Source: Pseudomonadaceae bacterium (lineage in GTDB: Bacteria > Pseudomonadota > Gammaproteobacteria > Pseudomonadales > Azotimanducaceae). From it: a stretch of DNA of 64,000 bases. Below, one piece after another: positions 17,372-34,087 of the stretch (within the stretch, counting starts at the first letter, position 1; each line of letters begins with the position of its first letter). The notes under the pieces were generated by a model. It made no database searches, was not told the DNA's origin, and worked only from the letters and a program-made list of their open reading frames with translations. The stretch lies in the NCBI GenBank assembly GCA_024743175.1, contig JANSXA010000001.1, positions 521,656 through 585,655 on the forward strand. Reading direction: 5' to 3'. A program made the position numbers and the translations under genes.

Positions 17372-17635
17372 ATGACCGCCAACATCCGCCCCGCTCTGCC
17401 GTCAGATAAAACCGTCTGCCTGGAACTCCTGGGTAAGCTGGTGGAGGCCACCGAAGGCGCCATCGACACACACGCTGGAGAAGTGTTTGACAGCTTGTTG
17501 GATGGATCACGAGGCCAGGTGCTGCTGGCCGAAGAATCGACCCGGGTACTTGGTCTCGCTGCGGTAAGTTTTAGCCTGGCCATGCGCTACGGTGGAGAAT
17601 ATTGCCAACTCGAAGAACTGGTGCAAACGCCCTGA
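17372..17635 (+). pseudogene. 5' part (84 codons up to the att core) of a GNAT acetyltransferase interrupted by the integrated element
   Basis: Strong AAGGAGG RBS, ATG 17372; ends ...YCQLEELV then QTP-stop in element sequence; joins in frame to 34109-34297. Confidence 0.9.
17603..17623 (+). repeat. Left att core TGCCAACTCGAAGAACTGGTG (21 bp)
   Basis: Exact copy at 34088-34108; flanking bases differ on both sides. Confidence 0.97.
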
Positions 17636-17683
17636 AACGCCCGTGCGATAGGCGTCTTGGAAGAATCTAAGCGATTACTAAGC

Positions 17684-17714
17684 AAAAAGCCCCGGTGACG
17701 AGCCGGGGCTTTTT
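17684..17714. terminator. Bidirectional intrinsic terminator AAAAAGCCCCGG-TGACGAG-CCGGGGCTTTTT closing the late operon
   Basis: 12-bp perfect stem with T-tracts on both strands, 87 bp after the last element gene. Confidence 0.9.
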
Positions 17715-17800
17715 AATTTCTAGGTGTAATTTTCCACGACGCCACTTTCTCGGCGTAGACGACACACGACAACGATAAACGCCATCAAGGTGCTGACATT

Positions 17801-18220
17801 TTAACTGATTGGGACGAGCACGTCTGCCTGATAGTTGGTCTCAGCCAAATATTCGAGCCAAGCGTCAGACTCACCAATGCGCCGCACTGACGTTGCTCTG
17901 AAGATCAGGCCATTGATAGTCGACATCTCCCAACAATCAGCCACACGGTCGCATAACTCTTGCGCCAAGCCGTCGCCCTGCCCCGCCGGTGTGAACACCT
18001 GCACGGACGCTGTACCTTGAATGCGCTTGCGTTTGCCTGCTATGGAAATGCCTATTTGCTGTGCAGCACCAGGCAGTACAGTGAGACGTACCCAGGGCAC
18101 GTTGTTGATCTGGGCAAGCTGGGTAGGCACGCCAGCGAAAACCACACGATACGTAGGCGAGAACGTCGCCCATTGATCGTTGAAGCGTGAGCGAATCTGT
18201 GAGGCAACAGCAGCGGTCAT
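17801..18220 (-). CDS. Phage tail terminator-like protein (DUF4128-like)
   Basis: PWVRLTVLPG...G...VQVFTPAGQGDG.A..L.D.VAD pattern; last gene after head closure. Confidence 0.7.
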   Translation of the reverse strand: MTAAVASQIRSRFNDQWATFSPTYRVVFAGVPTQLAQINNVPWVRLTVLPGAAQQIGISIAGKRKRIQGTASVQVFTPAGQGDGLAQELCDRVADCWEMSTINGLIFRATSVRRIGESDAWLEYLAETNYQADVLVPIS

Positions 18221-18576
18221 GAGACCAGCGTCACTTTATATGCAGCCATTTGGTCGCCGGAAACCACAAGCTGCGCATTCAGCACAGTGAAGGTCTTGCC
18301 GTCGAAAATGACCTCGTCATCGACAGCCGGTCGACTGGAAGTCTTTGCTGCAAGGTAGGTGAGCAGTTGCCCAGTCTGCACAACACCAGATAACCGGCTT
18401 TCATTGTACGGCTGTGGCGGTGAAATTTTGACGTGCTCTTCGGTCGTGGTGTTTGTGACCTTGCCGCTTGCAACATCATAAGCGCTGGTATGGCGTCGCA
18501 GGGTCGCAACCGTGCCGAACGTGTTGTCGATCAGCTTTTCGGCCAGGTCTCGAAATCGTACGTCGTATACTGTCAT
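18217..18576 (-). CDS. Phage head-closure (stopper) protein
   Basis: 119 aa; FG..ATLRR...YD..SG, P..DD.V..DGKTFTV pattern; position after the adaptor. Confidence 0.65.
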   Translation of the reverse strand: MTVYDVRFRDLAEKLIDNTFGTVATLRRHTSAYDVASGKVTNTTTEEHVKISPPQPYNESRLSGVVQTGQLLTYLAAKTSSRPAVDDEVIFDGKTFTVLNAQLVVSGDQMAAYKVTLVS

Positions 18577-18920
18577 GCGAGTTGATCCCAGTGAACATCG
18601 GTCGAGCCGTAGTCGAGTTCGTCCTTGTGGCTTCCCGAGAAAATTAAGTCATAGCGTGCCGGGCTTGCGTCGTCCCGGTTGCACTTCTCGGTCTCTGTTG
18701 GAATGTTGCCCTTGTGCACCCAATGCGTGTACAACGAGCAGGCCAGGCCCATTGAGCCGCAGCGGTGTGCGTTCCAGCATTTATCGCAGGGGCTTTCTTC
18801 AATGTACGGCTGTGCACTGGCACGGTTCCTGCGAGACTTCTCACGAACGAAGACGTTGTCTTCATAAGGCGCGAATTCCTGCTCGCCATAGGGCAGCTTA
18901 GCCACGTTCCCAAGTTCCAC
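18573..18920 (-). CDS. Hypothetical protein with Cys cluster (CxxC...C...C...H)
   Basis: PCDKCWNAHRCGSMGLACSLYTHW; overlaps both neighbours (23 nt and 4 nt). Confidence 0.55.
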   Translation of the reverse strand: MELGNVAKLPYGEQEFAPYEDNVFVREKSRRNRASAQPYIEESPCDKCWNAHRCGSMGLACSLYTHWVHKGNIPTETEKCNRDDASPARYDLIFSGSHKDELDYGSTDVHWDQLA

Positions 18921-19917
18921 GTTGAGAGGTGAGCAGAATCTCTACTTCCCGGGATGCATCAAAGAAAAACTTTTCGCGCTGGGCGTTGAAGTATTCGACT
19001 TCAAGCTCACCCAATTTCTCGCGCTTGGTGGAGCGGTCAAGCACACCCACAAGCTGCGACGCGGAAAGCCCGTCATCGGCGATAGCGGCACGCGCCAGGA
19101 AGATTTGTGCACGCTTCAAAGCCTCGGGAATCTCTGTCGTTGTGTAATAAACAAGGTTTTTGTTTTTGCTGCTCACACCAAGCGGCAACAGTGAGCCGTC
19201 AGGGAAATCGACATAGTCGCGAATCGCTGCCCATTCCCTCGGCCACTCCATGCACTGCCTGGGCTCTACCTTTGAGCCTATCCAGCGCATGCGGTACTTC
19301 TGTGACAGGTAATCCACTGCGTACAACAGCGCTGCATCCAGCACAGCGGTCGACACGCGCGGGCTTGCTGTGAATATTGAGTCGTTTCGGTTCTCCCAGA
19401 ACGTGCGCATCTCTTGCAGCGACACGTATGAGTTCGGGCATGGGCTGGCGTTTGAGTTGGTGCCGTCATTGACTACGATCACGTTGCTTACCTCCAAGTC
19501 TTCGATGGGTGACGGTAGCGGGCTTACAGGAGACCCTACCGGGCTAATTGGGCTCGGCCAGGGTGAGTAGTCCAGCGTTGGGGAAGCCAGCGGCGACACA
19601 GGAGACGGTAGCGGGCTGATTGGGCTCGGAGCAGGGCTCAGCGGCGACGGTGCCGGTGATATCGGACTCGGCATTGGCGATATACGCTGCGGGCTGGGCA
19701 GCGGGCTGATTGGCGATGCAACCGGGCTGATTGGTGAAGGTAGGGGCGAACTCCTTTGCGGACTGGGTCTGGGTGATCCAAGGGGCGAAGGCTGCGGGCT
19801 GATTGGCGAAGGTACGGGGCTCGTGTTGTACGGTGACGCAACCGGTGACGCAGGGGTTGCCCCGAACGCACCGATCTGCTCGTCGAAACCTGAACCATAT
19901 GCACCGATATTCGCCAT
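18898..19917 (-). CDS. Head-tail adaptor (so-called DnaT-like ssDNA-binding family) with an N-terminal Ser-Pro heptad stalk
   Basis: C-terminal NSYVSL.E...F, A.DYL, Q.MEWPR, IPE.LK.AQ..LA, KREKLGELEVEY motifs; about 30 SP dipeptides in residues 24-137. Confidence 0.8.
   Translation of the reverse strand: MANIGAYGSGFDEQIGAFGATPASPVASPYNTSPVPSPISPQPSPLGSPRPSPQRSSPLPSPISPVASPISPLPSPQRISPMPSPISPAPSPLSPAPSPISPLPSPVSPLASPTLDYSPWPSPISPVGSPVSPLPSPIEDLEVSNVIVVNDGTNSNASPCPNSYVSLQEMRTFWENRNDSIFTASPRVSTAVLDAALLYAVDYLSQKYRMRWIGSKVEPRQCMEWPREWAAIRDYVDFPDGSLLPLGVSSKNKNLVYYTTTEIPEALKRAQIFLARAAIADDGLSASQLVGVLDRSTKREKLGELEVEYFNAQREKFFFDASREVEILLTSQRGTWERG
19507..19848 (-). repeat. Protein-level SP-x-SP-x-P heptad repeat region (114 codons)
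   Basis: SPISPQP, SPISPVA, SPISPLP, SPISPAP, SPLSPAP, SPISPLP, SPVSPLA, SPISPVG, SPVSPLP; the DNA copies are diverged. Confidence 0.95.
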
Positions 19918-19920
19918 TGC

Positions 19921-21090
19921 TTAAGCCCTCAGTGCTGCGGCCATTGCAGGGAATCCGCCTACCGGTACTGCTTGGTCTGCGAAACCCCCGGCAGCGGAAA
20001 CAGAAAGATCGCCTTCGGTGTACGGGCTGCTGCCGCCGTCAATGTACTGCGGGTCTGCGGTGATATCGTCGACGAAGTCGTAAGGCGTACCAGCAGGTGA
20101 CACGTTGAGGGGTGAGCCAGTTACCCGCGGGGCTACGCCGCCGAGCGTATTGGTCTCGTTCAGCGGGTTGAATGCGCAGCGGATAGCCATAAGAGGGCGA
20201 CCGCTCGGTTCCCTACTGCCGTTCACGCCGTACCCGCCGTTGTTGGTAGCTACACAGTGCAGCATGATTCCGTTGTTCAGCGAGGCATCGCCGGGGACCA
20301 TATCGAAACCGTCCGTCGCATTACCGTGTGCGGTGCAGTTGATTAGGCGCGAATGAAGCGGTCCTGAGTTGTTGGACTGTTCCGCGAACCCTGCGCGACC
20401 GTTGTATGCCGAAACGCAACCGATCAAAGAAATATGGGCGTCGTTGCCGGTGATACGAAAGCCGTCGCCTGTCCCTTCTGGGGAGATACTAGCCGTGCCA
20501 TTTTCAAGCGCGACCGAGTTAATGCAGGTGTCGCCCGGTTGGAGATTAAACCCGATGTCGATGCACTTCTCAGCACGACAGCCGATATAGGTGTTGTAAG
20601 AAAGAGTTGACGGGACGCTATCGAAGCCGGTTCCCCAGCCATAAGCACCGCAGTTCACGAATACACTGTACTGTGCCCCGACTAAATCGAAACCAGCTTC
20701 GGCATTATCGCCTTGCTCGAAAATAGTGACGACATTTTGCACAAACCAGTAGTCGCCATTGAACTCTAGACCGGTAGCACTCGGGCCAACGTCGGGGGAA
20801 GCCGTTTTTCGAAAGGTAATAACACCGCCGTCGCCCACGACGGAGCCGTAGCCGATTAGCTTGCAGAAGCCTTCGCCGGGTGTGCCGCGACCGCTAATTG
20901 TCCATTGACTGCCGCCTTGCGGCGAAATGTCGAGCGAGTTCATAGAGTAGTCGCCGTCTGCATTGGTGGCGTAGACGGTGTCTGCATTGAACGTGGTGTT
21001 TCTAATCAGTTGGTGTAGCGCGATTGCGTTCGCTTCTGAAGAGCCGTCGCCTAAACCCTTTGATGCTGGTGCGGCATAATATGTAGCCAT
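19921..21090 (-). CDS. Right-handed parallel beta-helix (pectin-lyase-like) protein
   Basis: N-terminal YY..P...G.GDGSS.ANA motif; Cys/Asn ladder repeats GCVSAYNGRAGF, NCTAHGNATDGF, HCVATNNGGYGV; C-terminal DPQYID; GGAG RBS. Confidence 0.8.
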   Translation of the reverse strand: MATYYAAPASKGLGDGSSEANAIALHQLIRNTTFNADTVYATNADGDYSMNSLDISPQGGSQWTISGRGTPGEGFCKLIGYGSVVGDGGVITFRKTASPDVGPSATGLEFNGDYWFVQNVVTIFEQGDNAEAGFDLVGAQYSVFVNCGAYGWGTGFDSVPSTLSYNTYIGCRAEKCIDIGFNLQPGDTCINSVALENGTASISPEGTGDGFRITGNDAHISLIGCVSAYNGRAGFAEQSNNSGPLHSRLINCTAHGNATDGFDMVPGDASLNNGIMLHCVATNNGGYGVNGSREPSGRPLMAIRCAFNPLNETNTLGGVAPRVTGSPLNVSPAGTPYDFVDDITADPQYIDGGSSPYTEGDLSVSAAGGFADQAVPVGGFPAMAAALRA

Positions 21091-21113
21091 GTGTCTACTC
21101 CTTTGTTATGGAG

Positions 21114-21140
21114 AAAAAAGAAGGGGCTCCGAAGAGCCCC
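21114..21140 (-). terminator. Intrinsic terminator GGGGCTC-TTCG-GAGCCCC-TTCTTTTTT after the major capsid gene
   Basis: 7-bp GC stem, UUCG tetraloop and U-tract read directly. Confidence 0.9.
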
Positions 21141-21151
21141 AAACCCCATAC

Positions 21152-22183
21152 TTAGAGAGACTGTATTGCTACAGCGCCCGTGTTTTTCAGTTGAAGCACA
21201 CGGTCCCAGTTGGTGCCTGTGCCGAGCACAGTGTCAGTCGGGTTAATGCCGCCGTTAGCGAGGTCATAGGAGTAACCCATCAAGCCAACATCGAATGCAC
21301 CAGTCGTGTTCTGGATAGAAAACTGAACGTTGTCATTCCCATGCACGGTCTGAAAATCAATATCGAAGGCTTCGCTTTCGGTAATGGTCACAGCGCCAGG
21401 CTTCAAGCCGAGCGTTACATACTCGCTCAATTCGCCGGGGCTGGAAGTGTTAACCAGTGCAGCGGAGTCGCTAACGATCACAGGAATGCCGAGCGTTTCG
21501 GGTCGGCCAGTCTGGACGTTGAAAGAACTCAAGCCGTCGATGTTTGCGGTGATCTGGGACTTAACCAAATCGAACCACACTTTCGAGTGCATCACCCAAC
21601 AAGCAACTTGTGACGCTTGGTCACCAAATTGTGCAAGCGTATCAACCAAGTCGTTAGACGTGATTGTGCGTTGCGGGGATACCGCGCCGCCGATGTCGAT
21701 GTTGAGAGAAGCCTGATTCATGGTTGCTGCAACCAAGGCAGTCAGCGCACGGTCGAGCTTGTAGATCGCTCGGTCTTTGGCGATCTCTTCAGCAAGCAGT
21801 GCAGTAACGTCTGCGGGCACGGTCCCAAAAGTTTTAGCCAGTGCGTCAAAGCTATCTTCGACATACAAAGACTCGTTCAACTTCACAGAGATGATTTCCG
21901 AGCGATTCAGCCGCGTAGGTGTGATCGGCTGGTTACCCGGTGAGGCAGAACCTACCTGTCGACGGGAAATTAAGCCGCCGTGATTGATAAACTGTGCAGA
22001 TGCCGCGTAGTCCCCGGGGTGAATGCTGCTGGTTAAAACCATCCCGCCGTTGCTTGCGGCGTTGAATGCGTTTGAAACCTGCGGGGTCAGTTCGGTGATT
22101 GCAGTTGATAAAAGGTCTGGGTACAGCAAGCCGGAAACCGACAAGTGACCAGTTGAACGAAAGTTTTGTGAGCCTGAACTCAT
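21152..22183 (-). CDS. Major capsid protein (siphovirus Gp13-like type)
   Basis: AFNAASNGG.VL...GD, AKFGD-like AQFGD, LGIPVIVSD and GL.GYSYD.ANGG.NPTD..L.TG.NWD motifs resemble this capsid family as recalled. Confidence 0.85.
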   Translation of the reverse strand: MSSGSQNFRSTGHLSVSGLLYPDLLSTAITELTPQVSNAFNAASNGGMVLTSSIHPGDYAASAQFINHGGLISRRQVGSASPGNQPITPTRLNRSEIISVKLNESLYVEDSFDALAKTFGTVPADVTALLAEEIAKDRAIYKLDRALTALVAATMNQASLNIDIGGAVSPQRTITSNDLVDTLAQFGDQASQVACWVMHSKVWFDLVKSQITANIDGLSSFNVQTGRPETLGIPVIVSDSAALVNTSSPGELSEYVTLGLKPGAVTITESEAFDIDFQTVHGNDNVQFSIQNTTGAFDVGLMGYSYDLANGGINPTDTVLGTGTNWDRVLQLKNTGAVAIQSL

Positions 22184-22297
22184 AACGTGATACTCCGTAT
22201 TTGAAAGTTAATTGCTAACCTTCCCGAGCATCGCGCCGTGCACAGGTCGACTGTGCGGAATGGGAAAGCCTGTATTTTCATACAGTGAGAAAAAATG

Positions 22298-23698
22298 TCA
22301 AGGGTTATTTTCCTCGTCGAAGACTGACTGCCCACCTGCGACCGGGTTTTCGATCTCAGCGAGCGACAGCTCTTCTATTACATCAAGGTCGTCGGGTAAT
22401 AAGTTCCGACGCTTGGCTTCGCGCAACAGTGATGCCCGGGTCAACGCACCAATAGCGTTCAATTCGAGCAAATCTCTCATTTCTGAATCGGCCAGGGCCA
22501 GGGACGCAAAATCTTCGAAAACGTCAACTTGCGCGTCGTCCTGGGGCAAAGCTGTGCCGAGCATGTCGCCAGCGATACGCAGTGCCGCTTCAAGTGCTTG
22601 TTTCAGTTCCCGGGATAACGGGCGCAGGTCGAGCGAGCTTTCGACGTCATCGAGCGCCCTTGCGGTTGCTGTGGCGTTACCCGGACGTCTACCCATTGTC
22701 AGATTCAGGGAGGATGTAGCAATGTGCTGCTCAAGCGCTTCCAGCTCAGTACGTCCAGCCCCTACCCCTTTACCGCTATGCTCGAGGAAAGCAAGCGTGT
22801 CGCCAGCATCCAGCACGGTTAATTGATTAGGTCCAGTCACAATCTGCTTGAACTCGCTTTCACTCTCGCCCGACTCAGTAGTGCGGGTTAGTGTTAATGC
22901 GGGTGCGCGGACTGCGTGCGTTATGTTCTGCTGCTCACTGTTGCTGACCCAGTGCTCAACGTTTAGATGAGCCAGGTCTTCAAGTAGCGGTCTACCACCC
23001 GCAAAGCCAACACCGCGGAACTGGGCACTCACTAAAGGCACGTAATCGAAACCGGTGTCGACATCTTCAATCAACTCAGGTTCGTCGCTGCCTTCCATCT
23101 CTTCATAGATGCGCAGCCGGTTCGGTTCATAAACCCAATACTGACATTTCTTTTTTGTCTCGAAATCGTCGCGCTCGGTCACGTCGAACTGAATCACGGC
23201 GAAGTTATAGACCTCAATGCCGTCGACAATCTGAGTATCCCAATCAAGCAGCTTGCTCGGGTGTATCAGCTTCCAGTAAGGAATTGCTGCCTGCTCGTCT
23301 GCAAGCGTCTCAGCTTCGATGCGCTCCCGGTCTACCAAGATATGCGCAACGCCATAATCGACACCTTGCGTGCACAGGTCACGTGAGAACGCTGCCAGGT
23401 CGTCGCCGGTTCCGGTGACATTGCCTGCAAACTCAATCATGCGGGCGGGGACTTTGTCAGTCGGTGCCGGGGCTCGGGTTAAGAGCTTACCGACAACACG
23501 GTCAGCAGCCTTGCTGTAGAAATTGGTCAGCGTCGCACGCCGTAGCCGCCGGGAATATCCTTCAGCAGATTCGTGCGGGTTTGGTGGTAGGTACTGCTCA
23601 GCGGCGGCACGCATAGCGACAGTGCCGCCGCGCAAGTCATCTGACATCTTCCATAAGGGGGCGAACATTTTGTTCTGCTGGTTCGGTTCAATTTTCAT
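22298..23698 (-). CDS. Phage portal protein (DUF4055 type)
   Basis: GG..AMR.AAE.YLP..P.ES...Y..RL.RA...N, PLLEDLAHLNVEHW..NS.Q.NI.H motifs; ATG 23698 one base after the upstream stop. Confidence 0.88.
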   Translation of the reverse strand: MKIEPNQQNKMFAPLWKMSDDLRGGTVAMRAAAEQYLPPNPHESAEGYSRRLRRATLTNFYSKAADRVVGKLLTRAPAPTDKVPARMIEFAGNVTGTGDDLAAFSRDLCTQGVDYGVAHILVDRERIEAETLADEQAAIPYWKLIHPSKLLDWDTQIVDGIEVYNFAVIQFDVTERDDFETKKKCQYWVYEPNRLRIYEEMEGSDEPELIEDVDTGFDYVPLVSAQFRGVGFAGGRPLLEDLAHLNVEHWVSNSEQQNITHAVRAPALTLTRTTESGESESEFKQIVTGPNQLTVLDAGDTLAFLEHSGKGVGAGRTELEALEQHIATSSLNLTMGRRPGNATATARALDDVESSLDLRPLSRELKQALEAALRIAGDMLGTALPQDDAQVDVFEDFASLALADSEMRDLLELNAIGALTRASLLREAKRRNLLPDDLDVIEELSLAEIENPVAGGQSVFDEENNP

Positions 23699-23699
23699 G

Positions 23700-24293
23700 C
23701 TATGCAGCCTCACTGATTATGCGAATCGCTTCGCGCATTGTTTTACCTTTCCCGATCAGCTCTTTAATTTTCGCTTGCCGTTCCTCGGGTGTTTGGGGTG
23801 CGGTATCGCGCACTTCGGGCTTGCTGGTTTTGCGCGGAGCACCACCACCACCGCCGGGAGACTTGGCATTGAATAACGTGCCGTGATCGCCCGCTTCTTT
23901 GATGCTGTTTAGAGCATCGACGAGGGACAGCGGATGCTCCGCGTCATCGCGTAGAATCTTGCCGTTATCACCTTTCAGCACGTACTCGCCGTCTTCTGTC
24001 TTGGTGATGCGGTCAGCGAAGAACGAACGTGCGTACCGGTTACCACCCGCCGCTTCGAGTGCATCGCGCAAGGCAATGTCTTGCTGTAGGCGAGAGACCT
24101 CTTCGGGCTTGGCTGTGTTCTTCAGCTCTTCACGCAAAGCTTTCACAGTCGAGTGCACCTTTTCCGCACGTTGCTCGCCATAATTGAAAGCCTCTTCATG
24201 AACGAAAAAGTCTTCATCCTTGGGCTGCACGTACTGGGCTTGTTCCTCTTCGGACAGCTCATTAAATTCGTCGGGGTTCAGTTTAATTTTCAC
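23700..24293 (-). CDS. Capsid scaffolding protein (putative)
   Basis: Acidic N-terminus, coiled coil, LF.....GGGG followed by a short C-terminal helix. Confidence 0.65.
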   Translation of the reverse strand: MKIKLNPDEFNELSEEEQAQYVQPKDEDFFVHEEAFNYGEQRAEKVHSTVKALREELKNTAKPEEVSRLQQDIALRDALEAAGGNRYARSFFADRITKTEDGEYVLKGDNGKILRDDAEHPLSLVDALNSIKEAGDHGTLFNAKSPGGGGGAPRKTSKPEVRDTAPQTPEERQAKIKELIGKGKTMREAIRIISEAA

Positions 24294-24861
24294 TTGGGAA
24301 GTTTCCTCTTTCCGTTTGCATAAGTTTCAGCAGCGACTCGTGTGCGCCAATTTGTTGATTGACACGGAAGGCGTTGTCTCGATCTTTGTAGGGGGTCAGC
24401 GTTTCTCGGTAAACGTTCAGCAGGTCGTCAGAAACGCCGGTAATCTCTCGGGGCGTGTGCAGCAAAGCCAGCCCGACGGATTTGTGCGCGTCTGGGTTTG
24501 CGAGCAAGTCCATCTTCCCCGCAGCGGAACTGATCAGGTCTCGGTAGCGTTGCAGCAGCTCACCGCGGTCGAAGTCGGAGATCGGCGGCAACTCTTCACG
24601 TTGCAGATGTTCAGAACTGCGCAGGTTACCGAGTCGTTTTTCAACCGCGGCAATGTCTTCGTCGAGCATAGAGCCAATCTCAATGCCTGCTTCATTAAGC
24701 TGTTTCGCAACGCCCTCTTCGGTAAGGTCGGCATCCTCGGTCAACACAGCGCGCAAGTCGCTGTGTACGTCTAACCGGGTCGTGAGCGTCTGGTACGCTG
24801 GGGTTAAGAATTCATCGTCTGCGAACATGTGCTCGTAAACGATTCGCTGTGCGTTTTTCAT
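24283..24861 (-). CDS. Hypothetical acidic helical protein in the head module
   Basis: 192-aa ORF overlapping both terL and the scaffold gene (translational coupling). Confidence 0.65.
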   Translation of the reverse strand: MKNAQRIVYEHMFADDEFLTPAYQTLTTRLDVHSDLRAVLTEDADLTEEGVAKQLNEAGIEIGSMLDEDIAAVEKRLGNLRSSEHLQREELPPISDFDRGELLQRYRDLISSAAGKMDLLANPDAHKSVGLALLHTPREITGVSDDLLNVYRETLTPYKDRDNAFRVNQQIGAHESLLKLMQTERGNFPSEN

Positions 24862-26258
24862 AAAGCAAATTCCCTTGATCGTCGTTTGACGGGTTTAAAG
24901 TTAACTAGGTAACGGATTCCATCTATCGAATGGTCCGGACCGACTAAATCTTCTCGTCGGGTCTTGTGGTGCTCGACAGTCAATGTCGTATCACGCGCAT
25001 AGTCGCAGTTGGCGGTGTAGTAAAGTGCAGCGCCAGTCGCTTCAGGATTGTTACAGTTGGCAAACCGCTGTCGCATCATTGCCCAGCCGTGCGCCCGGTC
25101 TTGTTTTTGTGACTTACGCAGACTGACGCCGTTAGCGCGAAGTATCGCGCCGGGGCTATCGACGCCCAGGTCGGCAAACGCTGCACTATCAAGCACGCCG
25201 TGTGGTTGTCCGGGTAGCCCCCAATGACGCCACATAGACGTAACATGCTCGGCCACTTTAGCGGCTGGCATTTGGGAGCCCTTGTCTAAATCTTCCGGTA
25301 CAGCGGTATGAAATTCGTCAAAGACCACACTGTCGTTTTCCTTGAAGAACTGGTCTTCATGCATCGTGGGCCGCGTGAAAGTCGCCACCAAAGAAAACGC
25401 AGCCGGTGACGCACTACCCCAGTCCGCACCAATTTCGATCTTTACGTTATTCGGTAATTTCGACCAAGGCTTCAGAACGCAGCGGTCTTCTTCGAACGAC
25501 GATCCAAAGAAAGCACCTACCCGAATATCCCACGCACCGAACTCAAAAGCGTCGGCAAGCTCCGGGTCATCTTTGCGAATCTGGGCAAGCGAAGCACGGT
25601 ACTGATCGTAAATAATAGGGTTGTCTTTCGGGGTAGACGGGTTAAACAACCAAAGCCGCTTGGTGTCTGGGTCGCGGTACTTGACCGGGGGCAAGTTGGG
25701 GAACTCTTTAACAAATCGAGAACGTACGGCGCTGTGACCGATGCCGCCCGGGTTTGCAGTAACAATAAGTCTAAGGGGCACGTGTGCGGGACCAGACAAC
25801 GACGTCGCGATGCGGTCGAACAAAGTAAGGTTCGGCCATTGCTGAATTTCCTCGCACCAGATTAGGGTAAAGCCCGCGCCTTGCACCTTTGTCCATGTAT
25901 CCGCCGTCTCGAACTGCTCCCAACGGACGACAGCGCCATTCTTGAAGCGCGTGCGGCGTTCCTGCTTGTTGTGGGTGAAGGCGTCGGGACCGAGCATCGT
26001 GCGCCAGGTGTCGAAACACTCTTCTTGTAGGGTTGCGATTTCAGACCAGTGACGCCGGTAGATAAGGACATGTGAATCTGGGCCGTAATCAGCGATGTGA
26101 TGACCAGTGATGCCTGCGGAGACCTTAGTTTTCCCGCCCCGGCGACCACCTCCGCTAAAGAGCCCTGTACCGAGACCCGTTTCGTCACGCTCTTCAAACG
26201 TGAGCGCCCGCGCCTGGGGCTCGTTCCATTCGATATGTCCGCGCGTTTCACTCGACAT
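24858..26258 (-). CDS. terL: Terminase large subunit
   Basis: Walker A GGGRRGGKT, Walker B LIWCEE, motif III VTANPGG, nuclease motifs IGADWG and DHSIDGIRY. Confidence 0.93.
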   Translation of the reverse strand: MSSETRGHIEWNEPQARALTFEERDETGLGTGLFSGGGRRGGKTKVSAGITGHHIADYGPDSHVLIYRRHWSEIATLQEECFDTWRTMLGPDAFTHNKQERRTRFKNGAVVRWEQFETADTWTKVQGAGFTLIWCEEIQQWPNLTLFDRIATSLSGPAHVPLRLIVTANPGGIGHSAVRSRFVKEFPNLPPVKYRDPDTKRLWLFNPSTPKDNPIIYDQYRASLAQIRKDDPELADAFEFGAWDIRVGAFFGSSFEEDRCVLKPWSKLPNNVKIEIGADWGSASPAAFSLVATFTRPTMHEDQFFKENDSVVFDEFHTAVPEDLDKGSQMPAAKVAEHVTSMWRHWGLPGQPHGVLDSAAFADLGVDSPGAILRANGVSLRKSQKQDRAHGWAMMRQRFANCNNPEATGAALYYTANCDYARDTTLTVEHHKTRREDLVGPDHSIDGIRYLVNFKPVKRRSREFAL

Positions 26259-26922
26259 CGGTGATGTCCTCGGCAGTCAGGTCGATGACCTTCTCGTCTG
26301 GGGCTTGGGGTTTGGCTATCTGGGGCAGATTGAACGTGTACTCGTGTTTGATGGTGGACTCGTTGCCCTTCTGCAAGATTTCCGGATCGAAAGCCTTAGC
26401 CACGAACTCGGCAGCGCGTGTGTCGCCTTCCATTGCCTTTGTGATCTGGGCAGTAGCAATCTGCTTGATGACGTCGCCGCGTCCGGCTTCAAGTGCCGCC
26501 GCTATGGGCGGGTGCTTCTTGACCCACTTATTGAGCGTAGTCAGTTCGATACCCAGCTCTCGGGCAATGTATTTCATTGAGGGTTGCGCCGCGGCCAGTA
26601 GGCGTAAGCGCTGAAGCCCGTCGGCAGTAAGGGTCTGCACCTCGTTTGCGGCTTTGGGGAGCCACCCGCGGGCCTCTGCTTCGGCACACGCCTCACCCAG
26701 CGCTGTTTGCACTGTGGGCGCGTATATTGCTTCGACTGCGAGCTTCACCCGCAAGGATTTCTTGCGCCATGTGCGCCACGTAGAGGCAGCGACACCAGTG
26801 TGCCGGGTGAGTTCTTGTATGTTGGTGACGTGTTTAGGTCGCTCCTTGATCATTTTAAGGAGCGCACTTTCAGTATGTGCGACGGGCATCGGTCTTATTA
26901 CGGCAGCATCGTGCTGGAACAA
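26248..26922 (-). CDS. Terminase small subunit-like protein with two HTH motifs
   Basis: IQELTRHTGVAASTWRTW and MKYIARELGIELTTLNKW HTHs, then A.EGD..AA.F; overlaps the terL start. Confidence 0.7.
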   Translation of the reverse strand: MFQHDAAVIRPMPVAHTESALLKMIKERPKHVTNIQELTRHTGVAASTWRTWRKKSLRVKLAVEAIYAPTVQTALGEACAEAEARGWLPKAANEVQTLTADGLQRLRLLAAAQPSMKYIARELGIELTTLNKWVKKHPPIAAALEAGRGDVIKQIATAQITKAMEGDTRAAEFVAKAFDPEILQKGNESTIKHEYTFNLPQIAKPQAPDEKVIDLTAEDITDVE

Positions 26923-27081
26923 AGAACTGTATAGATGTCCAGCAAAATAGGGAAGATACCTTGTTTTACAACGACTTACAGCGACTTACTGGGACAACTA
27001 AGGGTGTGCGGTATGCTGGCAAAGGCTGGTAGCACCCGGGATAATGATCCCCGTCACCAGCCAGCCAGCCGATGACAAACG

Positions 27082-27174
27082 AAAAGCCCCGAGAGGTTTC
27101 TCCTTGCCTCCCGGGGCTTTTTTGTGGGCGTATAGAAAGAAGCCCCGGCAAAACCCTCATTGAGCCGGGGCTTC
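27082..27174. terminator. Two tandem GC-rich hairpins (27082-27123 bidirectional terminator-like; 27139-27174) between the early and late operons
   Basis: AAAAGCCCCG...CGGGGCTTTT and GAAGCCCCGG...CCGGGGCTTC. Confidence 0.7.
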
Positions 27175-27479
27175 CCAGTGCTCTTGGCGGGGAGCACTGT
27201 GTTGTGGCGATGGAAAGTCCCACTACAGAAAACCATCACCGCGAAGCCATGATACCGAACGCCTGCACGGTGAACACAAAAGCCTATTCACTATTTCGTC
27301 TATTTCGTAAAACGAAAAATAATTTCGCCTGTATCAACCCCTTTTGCTTAGGCACTGCTTAGATTTATTCATAAACCCTATTGCAGCGGGCATTTCTACC
27401 AGTTCAATCGACTGGTGAGCGATGAATCGAGCCCACGGGGAGCGTGAGACAACCTAACCCGCTACTCCCCCCAAAGTAA

Positions 27480-27680
27480 GAAAAACCATAATTCCAGAAT
27501 TCCAGAGTAATTTAGGGGGTCTCTATATATATATGTGTAAATCAGGGGCAAAAGTAGGGTGAAAACAGTCAAAAAGAGAGAGTCTTAGTAAAATATAGAT
27601 ACATACATACATTACTCTGTAATAACTGTTTATCCCTACAAAAACCCTTGTAAATCAATAACTTATAATTCCAGAAGACT
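27480..27680. promoter_or_regulatory. Putative replication origin of the element
   Basis: AATTCCAG at 27490, 27498 and 27667; inverted CAGAGTAAT (27503)/ATTACTCTG (27611) around an AT-rich core with a (TA)n run; exact IHF consensus AATCAATAACTTA at 27653-27665; directly downstream of the primase-helicase. Confidence 0.6.
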
Positions 27681-27688
27681 TTTCGGGT

Positions 27689-30343
27689 TTATTCTGTACT
27701 TGTCTGGTTTATCCACTCCGGGTTGATCTCAAAACGGGGTGTTTTCTTCCCGCGCTTCGAAATTACAGAAGATTCCCGAATAATCCCGAAAGAATTCAGC
27801 GTCCGAAATATGGAATAAATGTCCTTATCCGTGTGCCCGGTATGTTTACCGAACACCTTCATAACGCTCGTCACGTCGCTCAACGTAAAGTAGCCTAGCT
27901 CTTCGTATCTTTTGCTCCTACCACAGCGTTTCAGCACCTCTGCTAGCTTCTTAGCGTCCTGAACCTGCACGACACGCAAGTCCAGCAGTGCCGACATGTG
28001 CTGCTGATACCGCTCCGCCATACGTATGCATGTCTCTACAGCACGCAGCGACACGGGCCTTGTTTGAAGCCACTCCCGCCCCTCGGAATCTGTTTTACGC
28101 TCAAGCTTGGATAACCCGGCAAGCTCGTCTGCGCCTTGGTTCAGCAGCGCGTGTACACCGCACAGCATGAGCACGTGTCGCCCGTTCTTAGCGTGTATGC
28201 CGCGCTGCACAGGGTCGAGTTCCCGATCCCTGGCTATGCGTTGCTGATCCCAGTTGTACCGCGCGAAGCGCCTGTCTGCTTCGTCGTCGAACGTCACGAC
28301 AAGGTCTCCGTCTAACTGCCGACACTGAAAGAGTACGGCGCGAAGAGCCTTATTCCACGCGCCCTCTGTTTCCTCAAGCCTTTTTTGCCAAAGCCGCTCT
28401 TCTTGATAGACCGCGTCGAAGTCGGTCTCGTCGATGTGTTGATTGTGCGTAAATCCGTCTGGGACGACGATATTCAAGAAACGGAAAATCCACCCATTCT
28501 CTAGGTCAGCACCTTCAATGGTCTTGCTGATACTTTCCGGGGTTGATACACCACCAACCGGGCAATACCCGCGGTCTGCGTTCATGTGAATAATGTCGTT
28601 CGGGTCGATGCCTGCACGAATCTTGCTGTAAGGGTCGTTTGACCATGCAGAAAGGTAGTATTCGGCGTCTGCACCTTTGCCATTTGCGCGATACTGCCCG
28701 AACTGCTTAACGAAGCTGGACATTTCGTCAGACATGTAGCCCATGCCGTTAGGGTTTTGCGATAGTTGCTTGATGCGAGCCTCAATGGTGGCGTCTTTGT
28801 CGTAGACGACTTCTCGTATAGGTCGCGGTCCGCGCTCTTCGGCCTCTTCGCCGCCCATCTGCCCAGCCTCCTCCCACTCACGCAGCCTCTTCTCGTGGGT
28901 GCGTTGTCGCTCCCTTTGGAACTCTACTATAGGCTTGGTCACGCGCCCCCATGAGCCGGTTTTCTGGAAGCCTGGGGGCATGATTATCTGCACCCACGGG
29001 CTCGGTGTTTGCTCAAAGTCGTGTAGTGCCTTGACGGTCGTGCGTGCGCCAGCGGCGAGACCGACGGCGAATATCATCATCGAGCAGACCGCTTCCACGG
29101 GCTGATTAGATAGATGCGCTATCGCTTCGCAGTACCGGTACTGATCAACCGACAGGAATTCCTTTGCTGGGAATGTCAGCGCCTCGACTTGCTCTTCGTC
29201 GTCAATGGTCAACGGATTGAAGGGCTCCGGGGGCTCCTGTCTGTGGGTATCGTCGGGACGTTCCCAGCCTTGTTCTTCAGCATGCTTGAATATTGAGTCA
29301 ACGCGGTAGCAAGGTCCGTTTTGCTGCTCGTAAAGGATCGTGCCTTCAACGCTTCGTGCGTCGTGCCATATCTCCTTGATCTTTTCGGTGCCGTCATACT
29401 TGCGCGCTTTGGTCTTGTGCAGACCACCAGCAGACCACTTGTCGGCCAGGTCAAACAGGGCTTGGGCGTGCTCTTCATGCTCACACGCATGTCGTGACAG
29501 CGCCATGATTGCCTTGCCCCAGGAGAACGGTGCCTTTGTGTCCCAGTAGGGTGCGTCTGGGTCACAGTGGGATAGCGCGGCGGTCAGTTCATCCATTGCA
29601 AGGGGCATGGGTTGCCATTCGTCACGTATGTACTCAGGCACGCGGGTGTGGTCGGTCTTGCCGTTGAACTTTGGTAGTTCTGTCGGCTTGGGCACGTGTG
29701 TAGACAGCGGCTCTGAGTGCGGCCAGTCAACCGCACCGAACTCGACAAGTTCATAGTCAGCGTCCAGCAAACCGCCTTCACCACCCCCGGGCACGGCGAC
29801 CGGCTGCGAGCATACGGGGTTTGGGAATATCTCTAACTCTTGATCGGCGACACCTTTCTGCCCTTCTTTAAAGTCTATTTCTTCGCATATGCCGCGCAAT
29901 GCCTTGCGGACGTGACCAAAGTACGTCGGCTGCTCCCATCTGGCATACAAGTGAATGCCTTTGCCGCCCTTCGACTTGAACGCAATGAGATGCACGCCAT
30001 GCTGCTTTGCAGTCGCGGTGATTTTTTTCGCTGCGTCTACCATTTGCGCCCAGGTTGTTGCGCCGTCGTGATCATCAAGATCGAACTGCGCAATCTGCAC
30101 CATCGGTTGCCAGTTTTCGGGTCTCTCCGCCCGGGGTTTCATGCGTATGATTTCGTCGCACAGGTAGAACGACACGGGTTTGCCTTTGCTCACCAGTTCG
30201 GTGAACAACCTGCTCTTAAGTAAGCCGGACTCGCAGGACTGCTTGCCGGGCTTGCCTTTGTTTTTGGTGCGGTGCAGGAACGTCGTGTCGGTGCCTACGT
30301 AGGGGTGAATGTACTGACTGAAAAAGTTGAGTCTGGGTGTCAT
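27689..30343 (-). CDS. Primase-helicase fusion (AEP-like primase + PriCT-2-like + DUF3987/YfjI-like ATPase)
   Basis: FDLDDHD and KSKGGKGIHLY primase motifs; L..ALSHCDPD..Y...W...IMAL; PPGFQKT P-loop; MSDEMSSF; NGWIFRF. Confidence 0.8.
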   Translation of the reverse strand: MTPRLNFFSQYIHPYVGTDTTFLHRTKNKGKPGKQSCESGLLKSRLFTELVSKGKPVSFYLCDEIIRMKPRAERPENWQPMVQIAQFDLDDHDGATTWAQMVDAAKKITATAKQHGVHLIAFKSKGGKGIHLYARWEQPTYFGHVRKALRGICEEIDFKEGQKGVADQELEIFPNPVCSQPVAVPGGGEGGLLDADYELVEFGAVDWPHSEPLSTHVPKPTELPKFNGKTDHTRVPEYIRDEWQPMPLAMDELTAALSHCDPDAPYWDTKAPFSWGKAIMALSRHACEHEEHAQALFDLADKWSAGGLHKTKARKYDGTEKIKEIWHDARSVEGTILYEQQNGPCYRVDSIFKHAEEQGWERPDDTHRQEPPEPFNPLTIDDEEQVEALTFPAKEFLSVDQYRYCEAIAHLSNQPVEAVCSMMIFAVGLAAGARTTVKALHDFEQTPSPWVQIIMPPGFQKTGSWGRVTKPIVEFQRERQRTHEKRLREWEEAGQMGGEEAEERGPRPIREVVYDKDATIEARIKQLSQNPNGMGYMSDEMSSFVKQFGQYRANGKGADAEYYLSAWSNDPYSKIRAGIDPNDIIHMNADRGYCPVGGVSTPESISKTIEGADLENGWIFRFLNIVVPDGFTHNQHIDETDFDAVYQEERLWQKRLEETEGAWNKALRAVLFQCRQLDGDLVVTFDDEADRRFARYNWDQQRIARDRELDPVQRGIHAKNGRHVLMLCGVHALLNQGADELAGLSKLERKTDSEGREWLQTRPVSLRAVETCIRMAERYQQHMSALLDLRVVQVQDAKKLAEVLKRCGRSKRYEELGYFTLSDVTSVMKVFGKHTGHTDKDIYSIFRTLNSFGIIRESSVISKRGKKTPRFEINPEWINQTSTE

Positions 30344-30464
30344 TTTTTGTCTGCCTTTTATCTTAAAGGCAGACCTCGGGGGCGGGGCGGTGAAGAGGGG
30401 AACACCTAGCCGGGCACTACTCGCCCGGCTTACTTTCTGTGCGCCTTCGGCCTGCGGGAAGGGG

Positions 30465-31478
30465 TTACTTGTTACTTATGTGATGCGGGTTGCTCTTGAT
30501 CGACTGCTCGCATAGGCGTTCGATGTGTTGCTGTCGCCTGTCCATGCAGTCGCTCGGTATCAGGTAGGCCAGACGTGACAGCCATTCCTCCTGCGTCAGC
30601 GGCTCCAACACAATCGCACGTCGCTCGAACGCCTCGCGGCGCACCGTCTCGTAATCGTAGAACTGCGCACGCATCTCGGCTTCGAATGTGAGCCACCGGT
30701 CGGCTCGCTCTAAGTGGTTGAGCGTGTCTATATCCTCGCCCTTGTTCCACAAATTTCCAGCGCAATTAGTGCCGAACACAAGCGGCTCTTCGTAACGCGA
30801 GCCCGGCACTGTGATCTCGAACCAGTAGCCCGGTATTGAATCCAGTTGGCTAATTTTTGAGACGTGCCCGGTTCGATTCTCGGGGTTATGGTCTACCAAT
30901 TCGTCAGCAAGTGGATTGATTGGTTTGTGCCGGTCTACCAACACATCCTCGGCAATGCCACGGGCGAAAAAATTTAGCTCGTGATTGATTCGGTCGAGAA
31001 TGAGTTGCTCGGGGTCGTCACTCGTAGGTCCGCGCTCTTTGCCTGGGTTTTCCATCCGCCGCAAGTGCTGCTTGAGTCGCAGCCCGAGTGCGTCGAGCTT
31101 GGCTTCCCACTCGGGCTGCGTCATGTCATCCAAAACGACGCCGCTTGCTTCGAAGAACTTTTGCTTCACGTGCGCGTAGTCGAGCATCTTGCCGCACGCT
31201 TGGTCCCAGTCGCGCAGCAGTTCGTTGAACTTGGCGTCGAAAGGCCCGTGTTCAGAGTTACGCAAGTCATCGACTAGCTGGTCTTCGTTGTAGTCGTGTT
31301 CGGGGTCGTTGGCTATGCATGCACGCATATGCCCCGCCACTTTGAGCGCGTAGTCTCTGTCTTCGTGGATAAGCGCAACTTCGTCGACGGCGAAACTCAC
31401 TTGGTCGCCGTTATCGGTAATCAAGTGAAAGCCGATCTCTGTGTCGTATCTGTTCATTGTAGTTATAGCGTTAGTCAT
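30465..31478 (-). CDS. Hypothetical protein with an internal two-fold repeat
   Basis: DYAHVKQKFFEASGVVLDDMTQPEWEAKL vs DYETVRREAFERRAIVLEPLTQEEWLSRL. Confidence 0.75.
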   Translation of the reverse strand: MTNAITTMNRYDTEIGFHLITDNGDQVSFAVDEVALIHEDRDYALKVAGHMRACIANDPEHDYNEDQLVDDLRNSEHGPFDAKFNELLRDWDQACGKMLDYAHVKQKFFEASGVVLDDMTQPEWEAKLDALGLRLKQHLRRMENPGKERGPTSDDPEQLILDRINHELNFFARGIAEDVLVDRHKPINPLADELVDHNPENRTGHVSKISQLDSIPGYWFEITVPGSRYEEPLVFGTNCAGNLWNKGEDIDTLNHLERADRWLTFEAEMRAQFYDYETVRREAFERRAIVLEPLTQEEWLSRLAYLIPSDCMDRRQQHIERLCEQSIKSNPHHISNK

Positions 31479-31785
31479 CTTGTTTTCCTTCTTTTCTATT
31501 AGGTAATTCTTTCACCCACCCAGGCACGCCGGGTAACGGTGATCCTGCGAGCTTTGCTTCGCGCCGTTCTGAATTGGTCATCTCTTTGATCCACTGCCTT
31601 GCTGTGTAGCCATTTCCATGCAGCCACGTCAGCGCCTCGTCTAAGTGAAAATTCCGCAGCAATGGCAGCGTTGCCCTGCTTAGTGCGTTCGGCCAGACCT
31701 TCATGTCTGGATCATTGAGCGATTGCTCGAACTCACCCGGCTGTGCAGGTTTGAAAATCTCGTCGAATTTATCTTTGTCAATCAT
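31471..31785 (-). CDS. Hypothetical protein
   Basis: 104-aa ORF with 8-nt overlaps to both neighbours. Confidence 0.65.
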   Translation of the reverse strand: MIDKDKFDEIFKPAQPGEFEQSLNDPDMKVWPNALSRATLPLLRNFHLDEALTWLHGNGYTARQWIKEMTNSERREAKLAGSPLPGVPGWVKELPNRKEGKQDD

Positions 31786-32074
31786 TTACGTATTCCTTTT
31801 CTGCTTCTTCTAACTTTTTGATTAAGGCACGGGCTATCTCAGCCGCTACGCCGTCTACAATTTTTATGCGTTGTGCTTCAGCTTCCCGGCGCAATTGCCG
31901 CTCGCGCTTGAGCGCACCCTTCAGCTTGTCGACCTCTTTGCCGGACGACCAACCTTCCAGCACAAGCGCTTCTAGTCGCATGACATCGTCGCCGAAATGT
32001 GTTGTATAGGGCTGATAGCCTGGGGGTTCAGGGTCCAGCTTTTCGAACTCGTCTAAGGGTATTTCTGGCTTCAT
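31778..32074 (-). CDS. Hypothetical coiled-coil protein
   Basis: 98-aa ORF in a coupled chain of overlapping ORFs; LKRERQLRREAEAQR coiled coil. Confidence 0.65.
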   Translation of the reverse strand: MKPEIPLDEFEKLDPEPPGYQPYTTHFGDDVMRLEALVLEGWSSGKEVDKLKGALKRERQLRREAEAQRIKIVDGVAAEIARALIKKLEEAEKEYVND

Positions 32075-32421
32075 GCGTCACCTGCCTTAAGCCGTTCGAC
32101 TTCTTCAGCACTGAGCATGAAGTAGTCAGGCATACCCAGCGGCACGACGGACTGACGAGCGGCTTCCGTGCCGTGCTGTTCAGCGATCAAGTCGTGATAG
32201 AACCGGGTCATTAAGGGGAGGATTACGAAGCTGCGCCCGCGATCACCTCGGGTGCCGGGCACCTTCAGAATACGATCTTTGTGCAGTTCGTTGAAGTAAG
32301 TGAGACTGGTGTTTTGCTCACCAGTTAAAGGCGACTGGTTCGCCTCTTTTACGGGTGCAAGAGGCACCCAGCCGTAATACAACGTTTCCATATTGCGCGT
32401 ACCAAACAGTCTCCCGCACAC
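32071..32421 (-). CDS. Hypothetical protein, first gene of the early operon (possible excisionase/regulator; alternative ATG 32391)
   Basis: ATGA overlap with the next ORF; function inferred from position only. Confidence 0.55.
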   Translation of the reverse strand: MCGRLFGTRNMETLYYGWVPLAPVKEANQSPLTGEQNTSLTYFNELHKDRILKVPGTRGDRGRSFVILPLMTRFYHDLIAEQHGTEAARQSVVPLGMPDYFMLSAEEVERLKAGDA

Positions 32422-32654
32422 CGCTCACAGGGGATTAATTGGTCTCAGTACGTGCTTTATGCTTTCCGGGTGGAGTGTCGCAATCGGTCGGATTTTAACC
32501 GCCGTGCCGCTTGAAGCGCCAGAAAGGCTCTCGCCTAGACTTTTCTAACCTCGGCGGCGTCCGTGCGGTATCCGTTGGGGGGTCGAATCGGAATTTCTAG
32601 AATCGACGTCGGCGCCAGCCAGGCCAGGTCAATGGAAATGCCAATGACCTGGCT

Positions 32655-32683
32655 ATCCTACGACGACGAATAGCGCTTTACAA
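32655..32683 (-). promoter_or_regulatory. Putative sigma70 early promoter TTGTAA-N17-TAGGAT followed by the hairpin GCCAGGTCATTGG-N5-CCATTGACCTGGC
   Basis: Read directly; the spacer is exactly 17 nt. Confidence 0.5.
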
Positions 32684-32729
32684 GAATTTTTTCTTTTAAG
32701 AACAGAAGGATACGGCGCAAAGCTCGACA

Positions 32730-32747
32730 ACTTGACATATGTCAAGT
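32730..32747. promoter_or_regulatory. Perfect 18-bp palindrome ACTTGACATATGTCAAGT overlapping the integrase stop codon
   Basis: Self-complementary by direct check. Confidence 0.7.
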
Positions 32748-33989
32748 CTGCTCGAAGAGTTTCGCTAAATGGTTGTTATATTTCTGCAATGCGTCCGCTC
32801 GCACATCTAGGTCAGGCGGCTTGCGACTGTAGTGCGCGGTGATGCTGCCCTTTTTCTTATGGTTTAGCAGCCAGGCAATAACAAGCTCGTTGTAACCCAG
32901 TTGATCATACAGCGTTGCGCCCATCGTGTGCCGCCATCGGTGCTGGGGATTGTGTCGATAGAAGTCCGGCAACGGCTCCTTGTGGTTCAACAGCGAAAGT
33001 GAGTAACGCACGTTCCTAGGCACCTCGGAACCTTGCAGCGCCACGCGAAAAACCTTGTCACTATCGCCAGCTACGCACTTCGCATCATCCAGAATGCAGC
33101 GCATTTGCGATGTAATAGGTAGCCGGTGCACCTTGCCGTTTTTGGTGGTTGCACTCGGCAGTACAACAGTATCGGATTCGACCATCGACCAAGTTAGTTT
33201 CGATGTTTCCGTACGTCTGCACCCAGTATATGCAAGCCACAACGTGAACAACCGGTCACCTTCGGGTAAGCCCTGCGGCCACCACCTGCATAGCGCATCG
33301 CCAAGCCACTTTAGCTGCTCGTCCGTGTATGGTTTTTCGTAGGGCGACAGTTCGTCCTCGTCCTCTTTTTCTGGCGGTAATAGTCTTTTTGTAAGAATGT
33401 GCGTTGGTGGTTGGTAGGTTTTGTCGTGCGACTCAACGTACCGCAGTATCGTTCGCAGGTATCGAAACGTATCTCGCGCCTGCTTGGGCGTGCCAATCAT
33501 GCCTTTCTGACCTTTAATCTCGCCGCGTTTGATTTGATTGAAACGTCTCTCAACATCCTTTGTTGAAATCTCCCGGTACGGACGTTCAAACCAGTCGCCG
33601 AGATAACGCTTTAGTTGGTCCGGCACTTGCCCTGCGGTCGCCGCCTTCAAATCGCGTGACTGCATCCAATCAAGCATGACTTGCCGTAGCGTTTGTCCGC
33701 CTCGCTTTTGCGTCCAAGGGTCTTTGTTGTCACCGAGTTCTGACAGCCAGCGAATAGCCACCTTGCGGGCAGACTTCACGTCGGGTTGCTTGATGACCTT
33801 GCGGAAGGTCGAGCCGTTCGCACGTCTACCAGACAGCACAAACGATTTCCGTCCGCTCTCGTGTAGTTCCAACCCAAAACCTGCCGGGTCTGTGAACCAT
33901 TGGAAATTCGACAGCTCCGGGTCGTACTTGGCGGCGTCGACATTTTTCTGTGTTGGCTTTACTCGTGCGCGCGTTTTAGGTGCCTTCAT
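32742..33989 (-). CDS. int: Tyrosine integrase with N-terminal arm-DNA-binding domain (ORF extends to 34028)
   Basis: Arm domain GFGLE...SGRKSFV; catalytic residues in YTGCRRTE (R), TKNGK (K), HRWRHT (HxxR), LLNH (H) and TAHY (Y). Confidence 0.93.
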   Translation of the reverse strand: MKAPKTRARVKPTQKNVDAAKYDPELSNFQWFTDPAGFGLELHESGRKSFVLSGRRANGSTFRKVIKQPDVKSARKVAIRWLSELGDNKDPWTQKRGGQTLRQVMLDWMQSRDLKAATAGQVPDQLKRYLGDWFERPYREISTKDVERRFNQIKRGEIKGQKGMIGTPKQARDTFRYLRTILRYVESHDKTYQPPTHILTKRLLPPEKEDEDELSPYEKPYTDEQLKWLGDALCRWWPQGLPEGDRLFTLWLAYTGCRRTETSKLTWSMVESDTVVLPSATTKNGKVHRLPITSQMRCILDDAKCVAGDSDKVFRVALQGSEVPRNVRYSLSLLNHKEPLPDFYRHNPQHRWRHTMGATLYDQLGYNELVIAWLLNHKKKGSITAHYSRKPPDLDVRADALQKYNNHLAKLFEQT

Positions 33990-34087
33990 CTTGCTTATTT
34001 CGTGCTTAGAATCTAAGCAAAATAGCACATTACAGGGTATTACAACACCAGCAGAAGGCGCTATAACACGGTACTACGTCACACGAG

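Follow-up and report, generated by a model that had tools for sequence, protein, structure and literature searches.

Capsid-forming phage satellites examined to date attach their heads to the tail terminator of a helper phage by means of an adaptor and a stopper that they encode themselves, and this contact determines which tails they can take over. The locus considered here, a gene on the minus strand of a 64,000-nucleotide stretch of DNA from a Pseudomonadaceae bacterium (the window), raises the question of why an element without a tail should encode a tail terminator of its own, and what such a protein could do during assembly. The initial annotation had suggested that the element could cap helper tail tubes with this protein, so that the tubes fit only its own heads.

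The protein encoded at 17801–18220

The gene at 17801–18220 (−) of the window is an ORF of 139 aa with an ATG start. In a PHROG profile search, residues 5–134 of the product matched phrog_179, "tail terminator", with an E value of 1.2e-20, and the score against Pfam PF13554 (Phage_tail_terminator_5) was 32.7 bits, above the curated gathering cut-off of 27 bits. The family comprises 2242 representatives at E ≤ 0.001. A profile made from 97 of its members was searched against solved structures and matched 2l25 (8.6e-12), the FCWL1/T1 terminator chain 9jlf_D (1.6e-6) and 10lj_B, "Terminator protein gp14" (4e-6). The resemblance of this last gene to a siphovirus tail terminator, as first noted by the initial annotation, is thus borne out by the Pfam score, the PHROG match and the profile matches to solved terminators. 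Membership of the gene in a defence system was also considered and rejected, as it has no PADLOC match.

An AlphaFold2 model of the product, computed with an alignment of the 97 sequences, reached a mean pLDDT of 95.4 and a pTM of 0.87; the alignment was needed for a confident model, the pLDDT without it being 36.6. The model shows an N-terminal helix, long beta-hairpins and a second helix, i.e., the terminator fold. The top match of a Foldseek search against the PDB was chain 9jlf_D of the phage FCWL1 head-to-tail interface (TM 0.73/0.77), and further top matches were the T1 stopper–terminator complex (9l0e), lambda gpU, T5 p142 and the 80alpha/SaPI1 gp52 neck, so that the fold passed the Foldseek check with phage terminators as its best PDB matches. 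Among predicted viral structures, those annotated as siphophage terminators were matched with TM scores of up to 0.89. Sequence, profile and predicted fold taken together, 17801–18220 (−) encodes a genuine siphophage tail terminator of the T1/FCWL1 type. Since 9l0e is a complex of the T1 stopper with the T1 terminator, a terminator of this type touches the stopper directly. The phage proteins named above (the T1 and FCWL1 terminators of 9l0e and 9jlf, which belong to PF13554, together with lambda gpU, T5 p142 and 80alpha gp52) are of the same family by profile and fold and have a similar length of about 130–140 aa. However, each of their genes lies between a tail-completion gene and the tube gene of the same phage, directly upstream of the latter, and both of these neighbours are absent in the window.

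The element at 17603–34108 and known satellites

The terminator gene is the final gene of an intact, integrated capsid-forming phage satellite at 17603–34108, the single late operon of which ends in it. The element measures about 16.5 kb and is bounded by an exact 21-nt direct repeat, TGCCAACTCGAAGAACTGGTG, at 17603–17623 (attL core) and 34088–34108 (attR core), with 16,485 bp between the two copies. The repeats lie in a GNAT acetyltransferase gene, the frame of which reaches the left repeat and picks up again beyond attR, showing that the element splits this gene; the insertion site is flanked by prfB/lysS and recJ. Every long ORF from 17.8 to 34.0 kb is on the minus strand, and no pseudogenes were seen in the element, all of its ORFs being intact.

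Read in the direction of transcription, the element begins with a tyrosine integrase at 32742–34028 (−) (phrog_1 at 6e-31; PF00589), which is followed by four ORFs of 337, 104, 98 and 116 aa at 30465–32421 (−) without a Pfam or PADLOC match, the 98-aa ORF showing two marginal PHROG matches (E 0.004 and 0.009), and by a primase-polymerase with a DUF3987 helicase at 27689–30343 (−) (PF13148 at 7e-30; PF21686). The packaging and head genes are a small terminase (TerS) of the HTH type at 26248–26922 (−) (phrog_309 at 6.4e-12), a large terminase (TerL) at 24858–26258 (−) (phrog_2 at 8e-20), ORF192 at 24283–24861 (−), for which no family match was found in Pfam, PHROG or PADLOC, a scaffolding protein at 23700–24293 (−) (phrog_206 at 4.9e-10), a DUF4055-type portal at 22298–23713 (−) (phrog_145 at 2.2e-87), and an SPP1 gp13-like major capsid protein at 21152–22183 (−) (PF20036 at 4e-67; phrog_247). 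A right-handed beta-helix protein of 389 aa at 19921–21090 (−), which matches PF13229 at its cut-off and a tail-fibre PHROG weakly, precedes the head–tail adaptor Ad1 at 18898–19917 (−) (phrog_477 at 2.1e-26; PF20557 at residues 147–315), which bears a long Ser/Pro-rich N-terminal extension. The last three genes are ORF115, a Cys-rich orphan at 18573–18920 (−) with no match in Pfam, PHROG or PADLOC, the head-closure protein or stopper Hc1 (119 aa) at 18217–18576 (−) (phrog_161 at 3.6e-12, with a weak match to the lambda gpFII family PF05354), and the terminator gene. The stop codon of Hc1 and the start codon of the terminator gene overlap as ATGA, and ORF115 and Hc1 overlap likewise.

Downstream of the terminator gene, a terminator-site scan placed a hairpin with a T-run at 17688–17704 (−), i.e., the GC-rich inverted repeat AAAAAGCCCCGG...CCGGGGCTTTTT, which closes the late operon about 100 nt from the att core. 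As these are the next features after the gene, it is indeed followed by no tail genes. ORF, Pfam and PHROG scans detected no tube, tape measure, chaperone or baseplate/tip genes between the att cores, and no holin or endolysin gene in the element; the tube, tape measure, tail tip and lysis genes that mark an intact siphovirus prophage are thus absent. The missing HK97-gp10-like neck gene was likewise confirmed, as Pfam and PHROG searches found no tail-completion gene of the HK97 gp10 or lambda gpZ type (phrog_169) in the element.

Two further stretches of the element stand out. ORF115 overlaps both the adaptor and the stopper gene, and related phages have nothing at that position; a search of 5.8 billion proteins returned no homologue but ORF115 itself, and the idea that it is a displaced tail-completion protein was ruled out because it shows no similarity to one. 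The interval at 26923–27688, which separates the primase-helicase gene from that of TerS, spans about 770 bp with no convincing ORF, has the lowest GC content of the window (0.47), and may hold an origin, a pac site or a late promoter.

The element is comparable to the cf-PICIs, whose prototype is EcCIEDL933 of E. coli O157:H7 (10.1101/2022.09.08.507074; 10.1101/2025.02.11.637232) and in which the neck proteins, i.e., adaptor and connector, set tail specificity (10.1101/2025.02.11.637232). Both are integrative, fall within 10–18 kb, encode their own replication, terminase, portal, capsid, adaptor and stopper proteins, and lack tube, tape measure and lysis genes. Of the features by which cf-PICIs are recognized, the window element thus has the integrase, the att sites and the length, as well as its own portal, capsid, TerS, TerL, adaptor and connector. 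However, cf-PICIs are further recognized by an HK97-type capsid with a prohead protease and an HNH gene, and no protease or HNH match was found in the window element; they are also expected to have no tail-associated genes, whereas the window element has the terminator, though neither a tube nor a tape measure nor distal tail genes. As for an AlpA-type regulator, the four ORFs between integrase and primase gave no family match in a check that covered ORFs shorter than 85 aa only in part. When EcCIEDL933 was examined directly, its neck genes proved to be Hc1 (phrog_25) and Ad1 (phrog_40) only, and no terminator was found, its small uncharacterised ORFs not being terminator-like; the premise that the known prototype has no terminator of its own therefore holds. 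EcCIEDL933 also differs in its HK97-type capsid with protease, its HNH endonuclease and its P27-type TerS, and its neck ends at Hc1/Ad1, whereas the window element combines an SPP1 gp13-type capsid and a scaffold with a primase-polymerase/DUF3987 replicase and the added tail terminator. Full-text searches on satellites and PICIs gave no report of a satellite-encoded tail terminator; the phrase occurs in one satellite paper, where it refers to the helper phage. Because tail profiles count as "forbidden" for cf-PICIs in SatelliteFinder (PMC10085698), satellites bearing a terminator may be discarded as prophages, which leaves a blind spot in the census.

Related phages and constraint on the terminator

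The four closest homologues of the terminator are 54–59% identical to it in a multiple alignment (56–61% by BLASTP) and lie in siphophage contigs wherever the contig is long enough. Two uncultured siphophage contigs, L001 (Logan SRR17165174) and L006 (IMG 3300023214), hold the closest relatives of the terminator, capsid, Ad1 and Hc1 proteins, with identities to L001 and L006 of 61% and 56%, respectively, for the terminator, and 50% and 42% for the capsid protein. Unlike the window element, both represent complete phages: they encode a tail-completion protein and a 410-aa PF18906 tube as well as chaperones, a tape measure and distal tail proteins. The gene order of the relatives is capsid protein, Ad1, Hc1, tail-completion protein, terminator, tube, chaperones and tape measure, where the tail-completion protein has 133–161 aa and matches phrog_169 ("tail completion or Neck1") with E values down to 1e-37, and the tube has about 410 aa and belongs to PF18906. 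The order Ad1–Hc1–tail-completion–terminator is found in all related phage loci with a visible neck, with the tube next wherever the contig continues. Five HMMs of our own, built for the proteins of this neck order, were run over 26 further loci found through their portal or capsid protein, and every terminator-bearing locus among them (L048/L049, L056, L061–L063) keeps the order of the relatives, as do prophages of Rhizobium and Bradyrhizobium. Among cultured phages, 73 records contain a relative, and those listed are siphophages, e.g., the Pseudomonas PAE1 group and Dinoroseobacter R5C.

Thus, the terminator lies between the tail-completion and tube genes in the related phage loci with visible flanks, whereas in the window, alone among the loci examined, the tail-completion gene is missing, Hc1 directly precedes the terminator gene and nothing follows it. 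Had a phage simply been truncated at the 3′ end, the tail-completion gene would still be there, which makes it look as if the terminator was retained specifically.

The genes in the tube position beside PF13554 terminators vary. In a Bradyrhizobium prophage (L039/L040), the terminator lies upstream of a 163-aa protein in this position, and in L001, L006 and L038, it lies upstream of PF18906 tubes of 313–410 aa, showing that the terminator family is not tied to one tube family.

A second element with the same layout was not found. Searches with homologues of the terminator yielded phages only, as did those with portal, Hc1 and capsid-protein homologues and the contigs bearing the capsid proteins, and pattern scans of genome, viral and metagenome contigs found none. 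Among 401 genomes of the same order, the terminator protein had a match in two, including the window's own, and among 400 genomes of the same class, PF13554 had a match in three, again with the window's own among them; with so few matches in the genome surveys, the gene is too rare for a census of its contexts.

How far the satellite proteins have diverged was judged against the distance between the two phages. The satellite and L001 are 50% identical in the capsid protein, 40% in the Ad1 domain, 43% in Hc1 and 61% in the terminator, and L001 and L006 share 72%, 50%, 52% and 67% identity in the same proteins, showing that the terminator is the least-diverged structural protein of the satellite. 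The five closest terminators, that of the satellite included, have 53 invariant columns in common, and in a tree, the satellite terminator nests within the phage clade. It also forms the longest terminal branch of this clade (0.52, compared with 0.24–0.46), and carries 11 private changes at sites that are identical in the other four sequences, compared with 2–8 for the others. The branch length and the private changes could fit either a working protein adapted to a new partner or a mild relaxation of constraint.

Helper tails and the role of the terminator

The 4.72-Mb host assembly, which is 98% complete, contains a single PF13554 gene, namely that of the satellite, and no PF18906 tube, i.e., the type paired with the closest relatives of the terminator, was found in it. 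A lambda-like siphovirus prophage is present on contig 18 (G000:C18:~178000-201000; loci L035 and L036), with a gpA-like TerL, a portal, a protease–capsid fusion and a decoration protein for the head, a gpZ-like tail-completion protein (phrog_27), a gpU-like terminator (phrog_37) and a gpV-like tube (phrog_158; L035 15506–15934), a tape measure of 630 aa, and an ORF of 1561 aa downstream of the tape-measure and minor-tail genes. As the only complete tail gene set found in the genome, this prophage is a candidate helper, and a possible one, although its tube and terminator families differ from those of the satellite terminator's relatives.

The same genome harbours a sibling satellite of 16.0 kb at G000:C1:87435-103460 (locus L032 2435-18460), with 15,962 bp between 64-nt repeats at the 3′ end of a tRNA gene. 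Like the window element, it encodes an integrase, a primase, TerS, TerL, an ORF of about 193 aa, a scaffold, a DUF4055 portal and a gp13-like capsid protein; the capsid proteins of the two elements are 48–49% identical and the portals 36%. Unlike the window element, the sibling continues after the capsid gene with uncharacterised ORFs and defence-type cargo (the Pycsar effector PycTM with a cyclase, and DUF4238), and no adaptor, stopper or terminator is recognizable in it. Comparison of the two elements therefore identifies the neck end as the variable region of this satellite lineage.

In siphophages, the terminator hexamer joins the finished tube before head–tail joining, and is found on tails rather than capsids (PMC11661146); a single molecule of the tail-completion protein (lambda gpZ, SPP1 gp16.1, HK97 gp10) sits in the lumen of the neck (PMC11661146). 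Since terminators are added to the tube before joining, a terminator made by a satellite would compete with that of the helper and cap helper tubes. We regard it as plausible, if somewhat short of probable, that the satellite terminator acts in this way and re-keys helper tubes to satellite heads. The satellite would make its own terminator in the lytic cycle of a helper siphophage, while the helper tails assemble, and this protein would compete with the helper's terminator for tube ends. The docking joint between stopper and terminator would then be satellite-encoded on both sides, and the interface between satellite and helper would shift one ring down, to the stacking contact between terminator and tube, with the tail-completion protein, the tape measure and the tip still supplied by the helper. 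Re-capped tails would join satellite heads preferentially, and helper heads would lose tails. Such capping of helper tubes fits the known assembly order. However, only a single element with this layout was found, the host genome has no PF18906 tube, and the resident siphovirus prophage has a terminator and a tube of the lambda type, all of which speak against it, as may the long terminal branch and the private changes of the satellite terminator.

The same evidence bears on the other explanations. The terminator may simply be left over from a head–neck block captured from a siphophage, in which case it would be made but idle, and the heads would dock on the helper's terminator as in cf-PICIs. 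That the layout is a singleton in all searches, that the protein exceeds the rest of its clade in branch length and in private substitutions, and that the sibling in the same genome does without recognizable neck genes would all agree with such a remnant. However, the ORF is of full length and keeps the 53 columns invariant across the five closest sequences, it is the best-conserved structural gene relative to the phages, the tail-completion gene upstream was lost, whereas the terminator stayed and was coupled to Hc1, and the element is compact (16.5 kb for a small head), so that we consider this explanation unlikely. Indirect evidence, namely that the gene is intact, joined to Hc1 by ATGA, least diverged and kept while the tail-completion gene was removed, points to a gene in use rather than a leftover. 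One such use, which would place the protein on the head, is a terminator-like hexamer that sits on the satellite stopper as a docking ring, through which the head joins the helper terminator or unterminated tubes. The gene order and the ATGA coupling with Hc1 agree with this arrangement, as does the tube-like stacking fold of terminators, but we know of no precedent for stacking one terminator on another. In addition, the siphophage terminators that have been studied sit on tails, not capsids (PMC11661146), which makes a head-side ring distinctly unlikely.

The protein could also be dispensable for the satellite particle and act purely by interference, poisoning the tail ends of the helper or serving as a decoy for helper stoppers. 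Functions that interfere with tail assembly are common in satellites (PMC11364771), and the distal end of the operon, where the gene lies, is the site of accessory genes in cf-PICIs (10.1101/2025.02.11.637232). Against this, the gene has no match in PADLOC, it is coupled to the stopper gene rather than forming a separate cassette, and its closest relatives are all ordinary structural genes; such a role appears quite improbable. That the element is not a satellite at all, but a prophage in decay whose tail and lysis modules have gone, would agree with the phage origin of its structural genes and with the lack of an identified helper. We nevertheless consider this very improbable, given the exact att repeats directly outside the integrase and terminator genes, the satellite-type primase-helicase for replication, the lack of pseudogenes, and the second element, of 16.0 kb and with the same order of head genes, at a tRNA gene in the same genome. 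Finally, it is barely credible that the element needs no helper tail, i.e., that the rings of portal, adaptor, stopper and terminator form a stub "tail" with the beta-helix protein as a receptor-binding spike. The beta-helix protein would in that case be tethered by the Ser/Pro-rich arm of the adaptor, and the siphovirus neck would yield a minimal podovirus-style particle, for which a helper, if any, would be needed for lysis only.

If the satellite terminator does cap helper tubes, an own terminator moves the hijacking interface to the contact between terminator and tube, so that the helper range could be widened or re-keyed, and the satellite gains a built-in means of taking tails away from the heads of its helper.

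Two more elements were seen besides the window element and its sibling. An element of about 8 kb on contig 7 of the host genome (G000:C7:280514-288411; locus L037 2514-10411) encodes an integrase, a TerS (phrog_12559) and a 651-aa protein resembling a tape measure, which shares 23% identity with that of the resident lambda-like prophage; the element could be a mini-satellite with its own tail ruler. The window element, the sibling without recognizable neck genes and this mini-element with TerS and a tape-measure-like protein together suggest that the boundary between satellite-supplied and helper-supplied parts is evolutionarily movable. The other, a 15.5-kb Logan contig (SRR23274236; locus L044), carries a DUF3987 helicase, a resolvase, ORFs of TerS and TerL size, and a gp13-like capsid protein that is 40% identical, with a reverse-strand cargo gene in the place expected for the portal; it may be another relative of the window satellite lineage.
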